Source: Opitutales bacterium (GTDB taxonomy: Bacteria > Verrucomicrobiota > Verrucomicrobiia > Opitutales > UBA9783). From it: a stretch of 32,000 nucleotides of DNA. Of this stretch, positions 5,024 through 24,341 are shown in pieces. Below the pieces are notes generated by a model, which ran no database searches, was not told the origin of the DNA, and was given only the letters and a program-made list of their open reading frames with translations. Where the stretch lies: assembly GCA_024407725.1 (NCBI GenBank), contig JAKSVZ010000007.1, positions 1 through 32,000 on the forward strand, read 5' to 3'. How positions within the stretch are numbered: position 1 is the first letter of the stretch; each line of letters begins with the position of its first letter. Both the position numbers and the translations under genes were made by a program.

Positions 5024-6052
5024 TCAAGGATTTTCTGCCGGTACTTCCTCCGGCTGTGCCTTGGAATGCGACATAAAATGCTGAAATAGATAATCCTTCA
5101 GCTCGGTTAACCCCTCACCGGTTTTGCAGGAAATCGGCAACACCTCAACCTTAACCGCTCGCTTAAAAGCAGCTAAATTAGCTTCAAAATCCGGCAAATC
5201 GAGCTTGTTAGCCACCACAATAAATGGCTTATCCGCTAGATTTTTTCCGTAACACATCAACTCTTTACGCAAAATTTTAAAATCATCAATCGGGTTACGC
5301 GCTTCGCTTCCAGCCATATCCAAAAGCATAACCAACGCCTGGCAGCGCTCGATATGACGCAAAAATTGATACCCCAAACCTTTATTGTGGCTGGCGCCCT
5401 CAATAAGACCGGGAATATCGGCTAAAAACAAATAGCGATAATGGGAACCTGTTAATACCCCGACGCTCGGATTAATGGTGGTAAACGGATAATGAGCGAC
5501 CTTCGGTTGTGCACGCGTTAAACAACTGATGAGCGACGACTTGCCCGCGTTTGGGAATCCAACCAACCCTACATCAGCAATCGTTTTTAGCACCAACTTA
5601 AACCGTCCCTCTTCACCCGGTTCCCCTGGGGTAGTTTGGCGCGGCGCGCGATTAACTGAGTTTTTAAAATGTAAATTGCCTAAGCCCCCTTTGCCGCCTT
5701 TTAAAATAACCACGCGGCTATTAACTTCCAAGACTTCGGTTACCAAGCGCTGGGTAGCAATATCCCACACTTGGGTTCCCGGCGGCACCGATAAGATACA
5801 GTCCTCGCCCCCGCGCCCATAGCAGTCCGAACCCATACCATTTTGGCCATTTTGAGCTTCTGCATGCGGTTTATAGCTAAAATCCTGCAGGTCATTCACA
5901 TGGGGAGAACATACCAAAATAACATCTCCGCCCTTGCCGCCATCACCGCCATCGGGGCCACCCATTGGAATATACTTCCCTCGGTAGAAACTACAGCATC
6001 CGTTTCCCCCGTGCCCCGCTTTCCAAATTACTTCAACTTCATCAACAAACAT
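5024..6052 (-). CDS. obg: GTPase Obg/CgtA
   Basis: 342 aa. The glycine-rich Obg fold is MFVDEVEVIWKAGHGGNGCCSFYRGKYIPMGGPDGGDGGKGGDV. G1 is GFPNAGKSS, G3 is DIPGLIEGA and G4 is NKLD. Confidence 0.95.
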   Translation of the reverse strand: MFVDEVEVIWKAGHGGNGCCSFYRGKYIPMGGPDGGDGGKGGDVILVCSPHVNDLQDFSYKPHAEAQNGQNGMGSDCYGRGGEDCILSVPPGTQVWDIATQRLVTEVLEVNSRVVILKGGKGGLGNLHFKNSVNRAPRQTTPGEPGEEGRFKLVLKTIADVGLVGFPNAGKSSLISCLTRAQPKVAHYPFTTINPSVGVLTGSHYRYLFLADIPGLIEGASHNKGLGYQFLRHIERCQALVMLLDMAGSEARNPIDDFKILRKELMCYGKNLADKPFIVVANKLDLPDFEANLAAFKRAVKVEVLPISCKTGEGLTELKDYLFQHFMSHSKAQPEEVPAENP

Positions 6053-14684: not shown

Positions 14685-15617
14685 ATGAACGAGGCTCTAA
14701 AAAACATTCTAAAATCAATCCCTTTCGTACGTAATACTCTTAATAATTATCAGCTATCCCATAACAAAAACGGAATTGCATCCTATCGCATCACTAAGCG
14801 CAAAATTCAGCGGTTTATTGACTTGCTTAACAACGATTACCCTCAGGTACACATTAATTTATTATGTATAGGAGCACGAGGTGGATGGAATAATTGCTCA
14901 ATCGCCGTCCAAAATATATGGGGAGCATTAGCTAATTTTAACAACAAAACCACCTACGGCATTGAACCCGAACCATCGGAAGCCGAAAGGTTACTAAAAA
15001 GCGGTGAGTTCGATAAAATTTACCCTTATGCTATCTACAATCATACGGGACCGGCAACCTTGTATATAACCAACTGGATAGGATGCTCTGGGATCACAGA
15101 ACCCAACACAGAATTTCTCAACCAGTACCATTCCGAATGGGCCGATTGGTGGACAACAACAAAAACTGCATCGGTTCAGGTCAAGGCTCCACAAGATATC
15201 CTTGAAGACATTCCCTATGATTACTGTAATAGCGGACTTATGGGGCCTGAATATGAGATATTCAGCGCTATGCATGACTCCTTCTTTCAGCGTTCAACCT
15301 GCATTCAATTACTCACGCACGCCATTCCTTTTTACAAAAATCAACATACCTTTGGAGACATTTTTAACTTCTTTAAGGACAAGCATTTTATACCTATTTC
15401 TATCGTAAAAAACCCATTATTTTCAGATCTAGAAGTCCATCATACGTTAACCTTTGTAAAATCCCCAACCGAGATCAAAACGTTGGATCAGCTACTCAAG
15501 CACTGCCTCATCGGGATGATGCTACAAAAGCCCTATTATGTAAGCTATTTGCTCAATAAATTCCGTTCATTGTTCCCGAACGAACAAGCTTATCGGAAAA
15601 TTTGGCGTTATGTATAA
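14685..15617 (+). CDS. FkbM-like methyltransferase paralogue 2 (motif-degenerate)
   Basis: 310 aa, collinear with 6759-7751. Aligned blocks are YGIEPEPSEAERL / YGVEPDPEEAERL, ATLYIT / GTLYIP, FIPISI / FIPLYT and LDQLLKHCLIGMMLQKPYYVSYLL / LEQCLKHCLVGFMTNKPHYVAYIL. The KLDIHGAE motif is replaced by NSGLMGPE. Confidence 0.5.
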   Translation: MNEALKNILKSIPFVRNTLNNYQLSHNKNGIASYRITKRKIQRFIDLLNNDYPQVHINLLCIGARGGWNNCSIAVQNIWGALANFNNKTTYGIEPEPSEAERLLKSGEFDKIYPYAIYNHTGPATLYITNWIGCSGITEPNTEFLNQYHSEWADWWTTTKTASVQVKAPQDILEDIPYDYCNSGLMGPEYEIFSAMHDSFFQRSTCIQLLTHAIPFYKNQHTFGDIFNFFKDKHFIPISIVKNPLFSDLEVHHTLTFVKSPTEIKTLDQLLKHCLIGMMLQKPYYVSYLLNKFRSLFPNEQAYRKIWRYV

Positions 15618-18822: not shown

Positions 18823-19963
18823 CTAATGCTCAGCGGCGACCAACTCCTCAAAGGTATCACGATGAGGATACGCATCTAGAATCTTAAACGCACGCAGGTT
18901 TTCGACACAACGCGCTTCGTATGCATCATAATTTTCTTTAGTTAACCGATGACGATCATGCTCAATACACCACGCCATATAACGGTTGATGTCGGGATGA
19001 TAATGGGCTTCATCGCAATAATTCGCTAAATTGCCAACAAAATGGCAATCATGCCAACCGTAGATTTTAACATTTGGAATATCAGCACAAACGGTAACTA
19101 GGTGGCGCCATAAGGAAAATAAGGCATCGCAATACTGAACTAACGACATTCTCTTTCCACAATCCATTGTGCACACCCTACTATAGGTAGTCCATGCATT
19201 AGGTGTTAATAAGATATAAAACTTGACCAATGGATTTTCTCGGATGACACGCAATATAGTGTTGTTGATTCGTTGATTCGTTGATTCGTTGAGTCGTTGA
19301 ATAAGTATTCAACTTATAAACACTTTGTAAATATTGACAGTGTTTTGCAAAATACCCAAAACTTTGAGAGCAATAAGGAAACCAACTATGAACCTCATTT
19401 AAATTATTCCATGTCCAAAAATGGCTATTATGTTGGGATACGAACCTATGAGTAATGCAGTAAAATGCAGCCAACGAACATATGGTTTTTAGATTAAATA
19501 AACACAAGTAAGGATGGTTAATATAAGGCTTTGCTGCTTCTAATGAAGAGTCTATGCCTGAATCAAGTAAAGATCGAAATGCGTCTATTTCTACAAAACA
19601 ATGTTTTACTTTTTCGGTTGCCAAACCTTTTCTTAACCACATCAACTTCATTTGTAGACTTTGTCCCCCATTGCACAACTTCAGCATGCCTTTAGCCCCA
19701 ACTGCTTTAACTAAATCGCTACCTTTGAAGTTCATCGTGTGCGAAGAACCTACCAAAATACTGTCGTAATCATTGCTTCTTTTGAAGTAGGTTTCAATTT
19801 GACCTAGATTGATTAAGGGTTGACTACCAAACCACAAATTCTTGTTCCACCGCGTCTCATGAAAAATATGATACGGATCTATGAGATACACCATCAACGG
19901 CCCTATTGTCCAAAATAGGAGCGTGAAGATAAAAAAATACAGGATGTTGCGGCGAGAAGACAT
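18823..19963 (-). pseudogene. Frameshift-split gene for a membrane-anchored DltD/SGNH-like protein. It comprises two overlapping ORFs, 19199-19963 and 18823-19254.
   Basis: The upstream ORF has an N-terminal TM helix and an ILVGSSH (GSS-type) motif. The downstream ORF has a C-terminal YCDEAHYHP (DxxH-type) motif. The two reading frames are both open across 19202-19308 and overlap inside an 8-bp tandem repeat. The downstream ORF only has a TTG start in the track. Confidence 0.55.
19261..19300. repeat. Tandem 8-bp repeat GTTGATTC, about 4.6 copies
   Basis: Three perfect units lie at 19264-19287. A fourth unit, GTTGAGTC, is at 19288-19295 with one mismatch. Partial units flank both sides (GTT at 19261-63, GTTGA at 19296-300). 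Confidence 0.9.
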
Positions 19964-19978
19964 AAGACCTATTCAAAG

Positions 19979-20407
19979 TTAATCCAATTCAGGATCCATC
20001 TGAATAAACCATATCGGTTCTTTGGATTTACACCATAAACGTTGTTCTTTAAAAACTTTCGCAGGAATTCGAGTACATGCTTCACTCAAGTTATTAACTG
20101 CATAGCGCCTGCCACTTTTCGACAAACGGAATGACTTTAAAGATTCCATAAGCTTATCCTGAACCGACTGAGGGGCTTCATCTGCAGGAATTTGGAAAAT
20201 CCAACAAGCCTTTGTAGCCATACCCTCATCCGACGATGATCCGACAACAACAAATTGCTTTTTAATCGGTTTTTGCTTAACTGCCTCTCGCTCATCAGCT
20301 TTATCTTCAGCAGCCGATTGAATTTCATCCAAAAGCTCACTCACAACCCCACTTTCTAGGTCTGAATGCCTTAAAATACGCTTAACCACTTCCAAATCTA
20401 CTTTCAT
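19979..20407 (-). CDS. Hypothetical 142-aa soluble protein with no recognisable domain
   Basis: ATG start. Packing is operon-like: 30 nt after the upstream gene and 15 nt before the downstream gene. It has a charged N-terminal helix, an acidic/lysine-rich linker, and a C-terminal region WIFQIPADE...RRYAVNNLSEACTRIPAKVF. I recognise no family. Confidence 0.55.
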   Translation of the reverse strand: MKVDLEVVKRILRHSDLESGVVSELLDEIQSAAEDKADEREAVKQKPIKKQFVVVGSSSDEGMATKACWIFQIPADEAPQSVQDKLMESLKSFRLSKSGRRYAVNNLSEACTRIPAKVFKEQRLWCKSKEPIWFIQMDPELD

Positions 20408-20437: not shown

Positions 20438-21667
20438 TTATATAGATATTTTTTTAGCTTCTCCAAACCATTGTTGATGAATAATACTAGCAATTCGCTG
20501 ATTACCCGTTACCGAATGATGCCCGTATTTATCGACATAAAGACTTTGCAATTCAACATCATCTAAGGATTTCCAATAAGCATATAAATCTAAATAAGGT
20601 AAATTCAATTCAGCACAAATACTATCAAAAGCTGCACGATACAAAGCATGATTATCTTGCATATAACGAACATGCGTATAGGCAGGTAACATTACACAAT
20701 AAGGACGCCGACCTTTCTCCTGACATACATCTATAAAACGCTTTAATAGCGCACGCAATAGATCCTGTTGTGTTTCGTATAAGCCTTGCAGGTAATCATT
20801 TTTCTGCTGAAACGTTTTCAACAAATAAGGTTCGGCTTCCTGCAAAAAATGGTTAATGGCCATTGACCGATCTTGTTTACTGTCTGTTTTAACACGCGTT
20901 GAAGCCAATAAGCACTTTAGCAAATCTCCATCTTTTATAACATATCCTAAAGCCGTTTTAGGCGCTTTTTTTAATTGGGTAAAAAAATAAGGAGCATTGC
21001 CATCCTGTTGCCGGAAAAAATCCTGATAGCGCTCCAAATGTAAAAAATCATTCGGAGATTGAAGAGGACTTTTTACCAATTTTAATGCACCATCCGATAA
21101 AATGAAACGAGGCTTAACCGCTAAAACATTTCCTGGATTCGCATAATGCAACCAAACACTAAGAATTCGCTCAATAGTCCATGGAGTCAGAATCATGACA
21201 ACCGCACGAACCGATTCTGACAAATTTGTTGATTCCAAACGCAACAAAGCCTGATCCAAACCATAATTACCAACCCCATAATTAGTAACATACGATTGAG
21301 TAAACTGAGATAAATGATACTGGATCGTTTCCGTATCATTCACCTCACGGCACATACAAAAAGAATCACCAAAAGTTGCTATATAAGAATACGCTGGAGC
21401 ACCTGAAAAAGTACGACTCCCCTGATCATCAATCGAGTAAGTCGTGTTCCCTTGAAGCCCTATGTACGAACCTGTATTATCTCGATGATTCTTAACGGGA
21501 TTTGGCTTCCACCCCAACTGCACATCGAACGTTTTGTATTTATTAACAATCGCTGCAGTTACTTTGGGACATGCTTGTAAAAACAAACCTGATTTCAGAA
21601 GGAAAAAACGTACAACTCCTTCTAGGATCGCGCCAATTAACACAACACATCCTAAAAAAAACAACAT
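20438..21667 (-). CDS. Membrane-anchored SGNH/GDSL-family hydrolase or acyl-transfer protein
   Basis: 409 aa with an N-terminal TM helix (FFLGCVVLIGAILEGVVRFFLL). Block I is ATFGDSF and the glycine block is NYGVGNYGLDQ. The C-terminal Asp/His block is VDKYGHHSVTGNQ. The start codon is 12 nt after the tRNA-Leu CCA end and is preceded by TAAGGA. Confidence 0.65.
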   Translation of the reverse strand: MLFFLGCVVLIGAILEGVVRFFLLKSGLFLQACPKVTAAIVNKYKTFDVQLGWKPNPVKNHRDNTGSYIGLQGNTTYSIDDQGSRTFSGAPAYSYIATFGDSFCMCREVNDTETIQYHLSQFTQSYVTNYGVGNYGLDQALLRLESTNLSESVRAVVMILTPWTIERILSVWLHYANPGNVLAVKPRFILSDGALKLVKSPLQSPNDFLHLERYQDFFRQQDGNAPYFFTQLKKAPKTALGYVIKDGDLLKCLLASTRVKTDSKQDRSMAINHFLQEAEPYLLKTFQQKNDYLQGLYETQQDLLRALLKRFIDVCQEKGRRPYCVMLPAYTHVRYMQDNHALYRAAFDSICAELNLPYLDLYAYWKSLDDVELQSLYVDKYGHHSVTGNQRIASIIHQQWFGEAKKISI

Positions 21668-21679
21668 ATGAAATCCTTA

Positions 21680-21766
21680 TGGTACCTGGAGAGGGGGTCG
21701 AACCCTCATTCTCGTGAAAGAACCGGATTTTGAGTCCGGCGCGTCTGCCAATTCCGCCATCCAGGC
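21680..21766 (-). tRNA. tRNA-Leu (anticodon CAA), class II, CCA encoded
   Basis: The minus-strand 87-nt sequence is GCCTGGATGGCGGAATTGGCAGACGCGCCGGACTCAAAATCCGGTTCTTTCACGAGAATGAGGGTTCGACCCCCTCTCCAGGTACCA. The anticodon loop is CTCAAAA, there is a long variable arm, and the 1:72 pair is G:U. Confidence 0.9.
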
Positions 21767-21868
21767 AAAAACAAAAACAAAATTATGTTTCAAAAAAACG
21801 ATAAAAAGTACAAGTTATTTTATATAAAAATCTTATTAAAATGCTTCATTACCTAGAAAAAACTTTGC

Positions 21869-23132: not shown

Positions 23133-24341
23133 TTATTGTTCCTTAATACTCTCTTCAGGTATATTCTCTGCTGAATTTTGCGGCTTTTGTAGCAATGCAA
23201 GGACAAACAAAAACAAAAATGCCACTTCTGATTGCATATAATGCAGAATATAAGTCGTATTAAGCGTTTTGGATATACAAGCAATCAGGATAGCGAGCAT
23301 ATCTAAAAGAATAAACACCTGCTTTTTATGTTCCTTAGAGAACAAACGAACATGCTTCAACTGTACAACAACAGCGCATACAAACCCAATCCATAGCAAA
23401 TTATAAACGCTATTTAGGATAAAAGAGGCATAGGTTTTTAGAGGAGCTTTAAAAAAAATTAACGAACCATTGCAGCAAAACGGAGCAAAAATCGGGTTCA
23501 GTAAGCGCTGATATAAAGGTACCATGGGGATATAAGAACCATTATATATTTTCTGATCCCAACATGTTGCATACCAATACAAAACAGAAACGATCTTTGT
23601 GATTAAAGGATAACAAGCTCCTATCAACACTATCCATAGCCATCGCAATCTAAATCTAAAGAAGCAATAAAAGCATAAGGTAACTAACGCACAAACATAA
23701 CACGATTTATGCACTACGCATAAGGCTACTAAAGCGATAATATTGAACACAAAATTCTGAAAGTGAGTCGTTAAAGCCCAACACACACCAATAAGTACTA
23801 ATAGCACGTAGCTCATAGGCAGCGGGCAACCACATTCGATCAATAAATATGGATTACATAGAGACAACAGACTGATCCATTTGAGTCCATCACTCGCATG
23901 CAATAGGTGCAATAGATGCATAATTAAAACCATTGCGCCCATAATCGCTAATCCATGCATAAGTGAACAAAAGAATAAACCTTCAATATAATACCGGTAC
24001 CCCCATAACTTACAAACACTCGCATCAATCCAACGTGGGATATACGTATCAAAGGCTATACTACAACGCCTACTACCACCATTGTGATCATATTTCGGGC
24101 TATAAGAATAAATATAATAGTTGCTCCAATCAGGATTAAGGATACGTAGTTTATAGCTAACCGCATTTCTTTGTAACCAACAAGCGCTTGTGGTATAAGT
24201 TGCTACGCCAAACAATAGGATGCTGTTGATGAGCACAACGTACCGAAAGGGCTTCCAAGCCTTAACTGCCGGTAAGGCATAAAATTTACCAACGCACCAA
24301 AAAAAGCACACCGCCGGTAAGAAGAACAAGAAATACCGCAT
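23133..24341 (-). CDS. Cysteine-rich polytopic membrane protein of unknown function
   Basis: 402 aa with about 10 hydrophobic segments and roughly 21 Cys by my count. It has one larger loop (NPDWSNYYIYSYSPKYDHNGGSRRCSIAFDTYIPRWIDASVC) and an acidic C-terminal tail. I recognise no family, so GT-C/polymerase-like is only a guess. Confidence 0.55.
   Translation of the reverse strand: MRYFLFFLPAVCFFWCVGKFYALPAVKAWKPFRYVVLINSILLFGVATYTTSACWLQRNAVSYKLRILNPDWSNYYIYSYSPKYDHNGGSRRCSIAFDTYIPRWIDASVCKLWGYRYYIEGLFFCSLMHGLAIMGAMVLIMHLLHLLHASDGLKWISLLSLCNPYLLIECGCPLPMSYVLLVLIGVCWALTTHFQNFVFNIIALVALCVVHKSCYVCALVTLCFYCFFRFRLRWLWIVLIGACYPLITKIVSVLYWYATCWDQKIYNGSYIPMVPLYQRLLNPIFAPFCCNGSLIFFKAPLKTYASFILNSVYNLLWIGFVCAVVVQLKHVRLFSKEHKKQVFILLDMLAILIACISKTLNTTYILHYMQSEVAFLFLFVLALLQKPQNSAENIPEESIKEQ

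Follow-up and report, generated by a model that had tools for sequence, protein, structure and literature searches.

When a gene falls apart into two reading frames exactly at a short tandem repeat, has it been lost, or can it be restored by a change in the number of repeat units? This question is raised by a locus on contig JAKSVZ010000007.1 of the metagenome-assembled genome (MAG) GCA_024407725.1, assigned to an Opitutales bacterium (lineage UBA9783), of which positions 1 to 32,000 were analysed (this whole stretch of 32,000 nucleotides is called the window throughout). On its minus strand, a gene for a predicted membrane-anchored SGNH-like protein contains a tract of the octanucleotide TCAACGAN, and the gene parts on either side of this simple sequence repeat (SSR) lie in different frames. 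The gene is very probably an SSR phase-variable locus caught in a reversible OFF state. This reading, put forward in a first-pass annotation of the same DNA, is supported by a tract that is conserved in place and variable in length, by two contigs of one locus (L016 and L020) differing in unit number, by an intact in-frame allele (L019), by purifying selection, and by the single-domain fold of the joined product.

Concerning the mechanism, the repeat inside the coding sequence would gain and lose whole units through slipped-strand mispairing, and each such change shifts the reading frame, 8 not being divisible by 3. The full enzyme of about 380 aa would thereby result from every third length class, and a membrane-anchored fragment with the catalytic Ser but without the Asp and the His from the remaining ones. 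The window allele, with five units, would be OFF, and the gain of one unit or the loss of two would switch it ON. The slippage mechanism, the reversibility in this strain, the enzymatic activity of the product and the benefit of switching are what we infer.

The repeat tract and the two halves of the gene

On the gene strand, the tract is read from position 19300 down to 19261 as TCAACGAC, then three times TCAACGAA, and then TCAACAAC; on the plus strand, it appears as three perfect copies of GTTGATTC (19264-19287), followed by GTTGAGTC. Tandem Repeats Finder recovers it at 19264-19300 (period 8, 4.6 copies, 96% matches, score 67) and reports no second multi-copy repeat of this kind in the 32 kb of the window. 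The three-unit pattern arose in none of 100 dinucleotide-preserving shuffles, and the tract is not a chance occurrence. Tetra- to octanucleotide tracts are counted as SSRs from at least three units onward (PMC7383803), such that the window tract, with five units of 8 bp inside the open reading frame (ORF), three of them perfect, qualifies as one.

The upstream ORF crosses the tract reading ...STTQRINESTNQQ... and ends at the TAA at 19199-19201; the frame of the downstream ORF is open from the TGA at 19309-19311 to the stop at 18823. Editing the unit number in silico gave a single ORF with one unit more (382 aa), two fewer (374 aa) or four more (390 aa), and truncated products with one unit fewer, with the number unchanged or with two units more. 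The first-pass annotation had described the threefold repeat with its adjoining unit, the extent of both frames and the phase arithmetic (8 bp more or 16 bp fewer joining the frames into a product of about 380 aa), all of which holds on the sequence, in Tandem Repeats Finder and in the edited alleles; the N-terminal transmembrane helix and the motifs ILVGSSH and CDEAHYHP, which it had ascribed to the joined product, are likewise all present.

The 5' part of the gene (residues are numbered here and below on the joined protein with one added unit) holds the N-terminal membrane helix (about residues 5-27), the DPYH motif and, within VGSSH, the putative nucleophile Ser74 with its codon at 19744-19742. 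Its 254-aa product is 100% identical to P0001 (MJ218_02140) of the MAG annotated as 'Opitutales bacterium'. The 3' part encodes the putative catalytic residues Asp320 (19014-19012) and His323 (19005-19003) in CDEAHYHP and is 91% identical to the C-terminal consensus of the family. A search with the joined protein matched unannotated proteins only. Intact homologues, which are 381-396 aa long and 55-57% identical to the joined query, align with it over 100% of its length, so that the two ORFs of the window are halves of one gene. The features of the window and the tracts of related loci are compiled in Table 1.

Table 1. Features of the window and repeat tracts at related loci (positions within the window or within the respective locus)
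Feature or locus	Position	Strand	Repeat tract	State	Remarks
8-bp SSR tract, window	19261..19300	-	5 units on gene strand		site of frame change
5' gene part, window (254-aa ORF)	19199..19963	-			annotated MJ218_02140; runs into wrong frame past tract
3' gene part, window (other frame)	18823..19308	-			stop codon 18823-18825; conserved C-terminal third
142-aa gene, window	19979..20407	-			directly upstream; stop 15 bp before start codon of repeat-bearing gene
409-aa GDSL/SGNH-like gene, window	20438..21667	-			two genes upstream; weak Lipase_GDSL_2 and LA_2486 matches
L001			TCAACGAG x 11.9, perfect	OFF, split 264 + 111 aa	syntenic with window: gyrB-gyrA-402aa-tgt-...-142aa-GENE-usp-eno-DUF2062
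L002			3.9 units	OFF	MBOAT upstream
L003	8690-8730		4 point-mutated, degenerate units	ON	MBOAT upstream
L005	4656-4700		9-bp unit CTCAACGAG x ~5, encoding LNELNELNELNELND	ON, frame-neutral	UBA3869 contig_292583
L008			3 imperfect units		UBA3869; syntenic with window
L016			3 units of TCAACGAT	OFF	sample ERZ27297710
L017	1930-1995		7 degenerate units	ON	rRNA-like sequence upstream, GT2 downstream

Repeat number at the homologous site

The first-pass annotation had suggested comparing strains and bins; done so, the comparison finds a tract at the homologous site, just 5' of ..ILR[IV][IV]RE[NS]P.V.FY.., in L001, L002, L005, L008, L016, L019 and L020, with 2 to 12 units across the orthologues and paralogues of the family (all unit counts were taken from consensus assemblies). 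L001, L008 and L015 are positional orthologues of the window locus, because the 142-aa gene is a conserved neighbour in all three. The unit differs among loci at its eighth base only (A, G, T or C); none of the four variants contains a stop codon in any of the three sense frames, and all of them encode the same polar octapeptide in rotation. The database proteins P0017 (...QRVNESTSQRVNESTSQRVNESTSQRVNESTMLLCDL), P0015 and P0016 are truncated exactly within this repeat-derived peptide.

L016 and L020 (ERZ28633419), which come from different samples, represent the same chromosomal locus, in which the gene is preceded by genes for acetyl-CoA hydrolase, CesT, dnaX, ACP and KAS. BLAST aligned the two at 99.738% identity over 6,096 columns, of which 16 are gaps, and the remaining 6,080 bp contain not a single substitution; the 16 gaps are two repeat units, three being present in L016 vs. 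five in L020. Both products are OFF, in two different wrong frames (P0016 with ...RFIENFSI*, P0179 with ...RFNDSTIY*). L019 possesses the same middle cassette as these two (88% DNA identity) together with seven units and an intact protein of 394 aa, i.e., it is ON. The states with three, five and seven units are hence OFF, OFF and ON, as the 8-bp arithmetic predicts.

The middle cassette of the window gene recurs unchanged in a paralogue of the same MAG, MJ218_03945 (P0173), which has, by its protein sequence, from which the DNA was deduced, six units (P0173, P0174 and P0175 were studied as proteins only). It crosses the tract into the correct frame (..QRVNDTMSCVIRE..), as predicted for the window allele with one unit added, and then appears to be truncated by an extra A in GAAAAT.

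At other loci, the tract may have been fixed. The degenerate 8-bp remnants in L003 and L017 look like tracts stabilised in frame. In L005, the gene is ON whatever the copy number, since a 9-bp unit is frame-neutral; P0174, a close relative of L005, reads ..LLLNGSTAQQLN.., implying 8-bp units at the same place, and the 9-bp unit may be an evolutionary 'lock'. Paralogues of a second type (type B: P0010-12, L004, L006) are without the repeat.

Integrity of the OFF gene and possible decay

If the family were decaying, and the repeat merely the place where this copy broke, the window gene would be a plain pseudogene and its OFF state permanent. This is unlikely in view of the state of the remaining sequence. 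The window allele has no second lesion, and it keeps every position that is either invariant or conserved to at least 90% in a superfamily alignment of 85 sequences (D29, P30, G54, G72, S74, F251, P257, N300, Y318, D320, H323). Over the 93 codons 3' of the frameshift, the ratio of nonsynonymous to synonymous substitution (Nei-Gojobori dN/dS) amounts to 0.02-0.07 at a dS of 0.2-1.5 in all pairs. Pairs of two OFF alleles are among them (window-L001 0.067, window-L002 0.050, window-L016 0.058, L001-L002 0.028), and the window compared to all other members yields 0.045-0.07 over these downstream codons. To judge from such values, the region past the shift is under strong purifying selection; at a dN/dS of 0.02-0.07, the 3' sequence would therefore not have been out of frame for long. 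Permanent loss also fits poorly with a tract that changes its length while 6 kb of flanking sequence stay identical (L016 and L020) and with the seven-unit ON allele of L019, and random breakage would not produce a tract that is stop-free in all sense frames and occupies one site across diverged paralogues.

A number of observations nevertheless weigh against a reversible OFF state, and several of them are what decay would predict. L008, the positional orthologue in the MAG UBA3869, has two frame disruptions, a 1-bp deletion near codon 97 in addition to the tract shift; its 409-aa and 142-aa neighbours are 93% identical to those of the window, and its middle cassette is completely different. 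In the MAG of the window, the truncation of P0173 and P0013 (MJ218_03760) apparently goes back to A4-to-A5 frameshifts that lie outside the tract (GAAAAT and GTTAAAATC, respectively; both deduced from the proteins). These shifts in A-runs represent either real decay or homopolymer errors of the assembly, and they bear on how far single-base frame calls in this MAG can be trusted. Among undegraded 8-bp tracts, nearly all alleles are OFF (window, L001, L002, L016, L020, P0178, P0185 and P0175), and ON is found in L019 only. Neutral switching is expected to leave about two-thirds of the alleles OFF; the excess fits the phase-variation model but could also reflect decay. In dN, the C-terminal part of the window gene exceeds all others compared (0.05-0.07 vs. 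0.01-0.04), a slight rise that hints at some relaxed constraint, and gene conversion among paralogues could have a share in the seeming conservation of the 3' end. As the window tract consists of only three perfect units between two imperfect ones, its mutability is probably modest, and the evidence for hypermutability comes from a paralogous locus (L016/L020), not from the window's own. Concerning function, the fold assignment is numerically weak, with neither a Pfam nor a PDB sequence match, and no MBOAT gene is present in the window.

It is very improbable that the frame change is an artefact of sequencing or assembly, i.e., that the true tract is in frame and the repeat was collapsed or miscounted. 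The tract of 40 bp lies well within a read, the 765-bp contig L018 (GCA_024500515.1) encodes an identical 254-aa product, and out-of-frame tracts of various lengths recur in independent assemblies from different pipelines. Although the source is a MAG, in which the near-identical ends of paralogues invite mis-assembly and in which the homopolymer-type frameshifts of two other paralogues could be errors, the window housekeeping genes gyrA, gyrB, eno and tgt are all intact. A fixed pseudogene and an assembly collapse, both of which the first-pass annotation had offered as alternatives, are thus possible but less likely explanations, the window allele being free of a second lesion and the tract so short. 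Programmed ribosomal frameshifting was considered as well and rejected, as +1 and +2 states both occur among the alleles and, apart from the repeat, neither a slippery site nor a stimulator is conserved.

Gene copies and mosaic structure

The window gene is a member of a lineage-specific multigene family of Opitutales and Puniceicoccales from ruminant or gut metagenomes. At least seven members are present in the MAG of the window (MJ218_02140, 02435, 03285, 03760, 03930, 03935 and 03945) and at least six in UBA3869, and more distant copies occur in a yak-rumen Opitutales MAG and in Puniceicoccales MAGs. A scan of JGI metagenomes for the family yielded only two partial loci, both at contig ends (L014, L015).

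Many members are called from the internal Met of MVYIVDPYH (L016:4926-5001; P0002, P0008, P0009, P0016) and thereby lose the N-terminal membrane helix; an in-frame ATG upstream (MPHRRNIVYF...) is present, such that the database lengths of 341-358 aa understate the true length of about 380 aa.

All members have in common a very conserved N-terminal part of about 97 aa and a C-terminal part of about 100 aa, between which lies a hypervariable middle of about 190 aa; the repeat tract is situated at the 3' edge of this middle region. Unrelated middle cassettes are found at the same chromosomal site in the window (18823-19963) vs. L008:4001-5100, and again in L004:1261-2373 (type B, 370 aa) vs. L017:1261-2442 (type A, 393 aa), the gene of the latter two being preceded by rRNA-like sequence and followed by a GT2 gene. 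This pattern suggests cassette exchange or gene conversion among paralogues. The contig ends 1.26 kb upstream of the gene in L004 and L017 were considered as a possible effect of a multicopy gene, which they probably are not, the sequence there being rRNA-like (as judged from spurious ORFs in six-frame translation).

The position of the tract beside exchangeable cassettes, the very different tract lengths tolerated in ON alleles and the frame-neutral 9-bp unit of L005 would also suit a variable-length linker or a recombination junction for cassette swapping, with the frame changes as a side effect. The chance that this is the correct explanation is nevertheless very small: a linker would favour multiples of 3, whereas units of 8 bp prevail and the majority of the alleles is out of frame; L016 and L020 differ by whole units only and exhibit no recombination tract; and the type B paralogues carry different cassettes without any repeat.

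In L002, a terminase gene and small phage-like genes follow the family gene, and a prophage may be adjacent. A phage-borne module, considered because of this terminase, found no support: viral contigs contained no family member, and the 13 pattern matches in them are unrelated repeats.

Predicted fold and function

The joined protein matched no family in Pfam and, in NCBIfam, only Cas13c, spuriously (E 0.0085), and PDB sequence searches with profiles of 13 and 85 sequences gave no match. An exhaustive search with a hidden Markov model (HMM) retrieved 3,153 representatives (50%-identity clusters) at E <= 1e-3, and still 827 with the limit set to E <= 1e-30; most representatives are about 350 aa long. 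Scanning 85 members of this superfamily brought one weak ALGX match (E 0.008) and one DUF1574 match. By these searches, the family belongs to a large unannotated superfamily without a Pfam model.

An AlphaFold2 model of the joined protein with one added unit, built on the 85-sequence alignment, reached a predicted local distance difference test score (pLDDT) of 91.4 and a predicted template modelling score of 0.92 (an earlier alignment of 13 sequences gave a pLDDT of 56 and was set aside in favour of this one). The model consists of a hydrophobic N-terminal helix (about residues 3-28) and one alpha/beta domain of alternating beta-alpha elements. The residues encoded by the repeat (about 222-237) form a loop at its surface and the beginning of helix 229-245, which explains the tolerance of length steps of 8 aa. 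In Foldseek searches of the PDB, DltD came first (3bma, 6pfx, 7dxm) with about 390 aligned columns, at a weak E of 6e-3 and a template modelling score of about 0.3, and was followed by many SGNH hydrolases (probability 0.8-0.98). S74 and D320 are at least 90% conserved and H323 is invariant in the 85 sequences, making up a putative Ser...DxxH triad. The model, the conservation pattern and Foldseek thus agree on what is required of an SGNH protein, viz. an alpha/beta/alpha fold, the block I Ser and the block V Asp-x-x-His; curated sequence models (Pfam clan, NCBIfam) do not recognise the joined protein.

Concerning gene context, family members are preceded, at a distance of 24-26 bp, by an MBOAT gene in L002 (27-1478) and L003 (6523-7974), and one is adjacent in L012 (2520-3995), a Pseudomonadales relative. 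These three MBOATs end in FLYWQF or FIYFNF, i.e., in FxYxxF, the acyl-shuttle motif typical of MBOAT-SGNH acyltransferase pairs (PMC12148441). Such a pairing by adjacency and motif is therefore found at L002, L003 and L012 and not in the window, and the window copy would rely on an MBOAT encoded elsewhere, since none is present in the window. In L003, a GT4 gene is located downstream of the family gene as well.

Taken together, the weak Foldseek result, the motif and the gene context make the joined protein most likely a predicted DltD/PatB-like extracytoplasmic acyltransferase partner of an MBOAT. Membership of the DltD family proper (PF04914-type) is not indicated, as there is no Pfam or PDB sequence match and as DltA, DltC and DltX are absent from the fetched loci; what resembles DltD is the fold and the architecture only. 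The label 'DltD/SGNH-like' of the first-pass annotation is accordingly borne out by DltD as the first (weak) Foldseek match, by Ser...DxxH and by MBOAT adjacency, and not by Pfam. That annotation had further proposed running HMM and structure prediction on the fused protein, and had held that a product failing to fold or align as one domain would speak against switching: no HMM family was obtained, and the product is modelled as a single domain and aligns end to end with its homologues.

The protein would then be a type-II membrane-anchored SGNH-like enzyme partnered with an MBOAT, as in DltB/DltD or PatA/PatB, which may take an acyl group from the C-terminal FxYxxF tyrosine of the MBOAT and place it on an envelope glycan; the presumed benefit would be a surface acylation pattern that varies against phage or host pressure. 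A more tentative proposal, possible though rather doubtful at present, extends this to the whole family as a combinatorial surface-acylation switchboard, in which paralogues are independently toggled by the conserved octanucleotide tract and share one or a few MBOAT donors. Six or more SGNH-like paralogues per genome would take part in it, their exchangeable middle cassettes presumably setting the acceptor specificity, and copies would occasionally be locked ON via degeneration of the tract (L003, L017) or via the frame-neutral 9-mer (L005).

Comparison with known phase-variable and acylation systems

Contingency loci based on SSRs are textbook biology of a few host-adapted pathogens, i.e., Haemophilus, Neisseria, Campylobacter and Helicobacter. 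Surface-glycan modifying genes switched by SSRs, oafA included, are known from Haemophilus, Neisseria and Campylobacter (PMC10505976, PMC6479036, PMC8437040). The organization found here is similar to that of oafA, which codes for the lipooligosaccharide O-acetyltransferase of Haemophilus influenzae, in that a repeat within the gene, with a unit length not divisible by 3, shifts the frame of an enzyme (here a predicted one) acylating a surface polymer, and in that OFF alleles are otherwise intact. Despite this similarity, there are several differences: OafA is a fusion of AT3 and SGNH, whereas a separate SGNH-like protein of an MBOAT-type system is predicted here; oafA and similar genes carry tetranucleotide or homopolymer tracts, whereas the unit is an octanucleotide here; their hosts are proteobacterial pathogens, and not an uncultured commensal of the Opitutales; and the tract is carried by a whole paralogous family in the present case.

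In this last respect, the opa genes of Neisseria are closer, in which coding repeats of the pentanucleotide CTCTT switch each copy independently; Opa proteins are outer-membrane adhesins, and the repeat lies in the signal peptide. Equally to opa, the present genes form a multicopy family with conserved ends, hypervariable middles, a coding repeat and signs of cassette exchange. They differ in coding for predicted enzymes instead of adhesins, with the repeat two-thirds into the catalytic domain instead of in the signal peptide, and recombination between copies is deduced here from sequence comparison only.

With DltD and with PatB, AlgJ/AlgX and WssI, the predicted protein shares the N-terminal anchor, an SGNH-like alpha/beta domain of about 350 aa, the block I Ser and the block V DxxH, and, at loci other than the window, the position of the gene directly downstream of an MBOAT with a C-terminal FxYxxF, as known for DltD and the MBOAT-SGNH partners. 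In sequence, the family resembles neither DltD nor ALGX nor any Pfam family significantly, and the Foldseek match is weak; Pfam labels revealed neither DltA nor DltC nor DltX in the fetched loci, and the window copy is not beside an MBOAT.

The locus very probably adds a new protein family and a new phylum to the contingency loci, by a mechanism class that is already known; an octanucleotide is uncommon as the repeat unit. The literature searches brought up no account of phase variation by SSRs in Opitutales or other Verrucomicrobia. An uncultured rumen or gut lineage of Opitutales thus appears to use the contingency strategy on a family of probable envelope-acylating enzymes, which, if true, would point to strong fluctuating selection on the surface of these bacteria by phages, protists or host immunity. 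Should the combinatorial switchboard exist, it would amount to antigenic and phase variation of the opa kind built from enzymes, not adhesins, and no system of contingency loci would have been described before it in Verrucomicrobiota or in a non-pathogenic symbiont of the rumen or gut. The large unannotated family gains a functional lead and a high-confidence structural model, and apparently represents a further SGNH-type partner of MBOATs. For annotation, caution is advisable, as a 'hypothetical protein, 254 aa' and an uncalled or separate 3' ORF may together be one switchable gene. Consensus metagenome contigs alone can reveal hypermutable tracts through identical flanks across samples.

Neighbouring genes

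The first-pass annotation had also matched the joined product, by architecture and size, to the 409-aa SGNH protein encoded two genes upstream. A relationship between the two was rejected: hhalign of the 85-sequence family profile against the 409-aa protein detected no homology (probability 0.07, E 0.67). In L001, a remnant of about 84 aa, 68% identical to the window's 409-aa gene, is located at 5231-5482, where the gene call is instead a 117-aa ORF of the other strand; to judge from this remnant, the 409-aa gene is largely deleted in the L001 genome. The window also contains an intergenic CAAAAA repeat of 2.8 copies (21766-21782), which precedes the 409-aa gene by about 100 bp and is too short to be interpreted. 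Two further genes of the window have counterparts of similar length at the matching position of L001, viz. a 310-aa ORF on the plus strand (14685-15617) without a family match, which corresponds to a 311-aa gene there, and a 402-aa polytopic membrane protein on the minus strand (23133-24341) with a faint TgpA_N match only, which corresponds to a gene of 402 aa.

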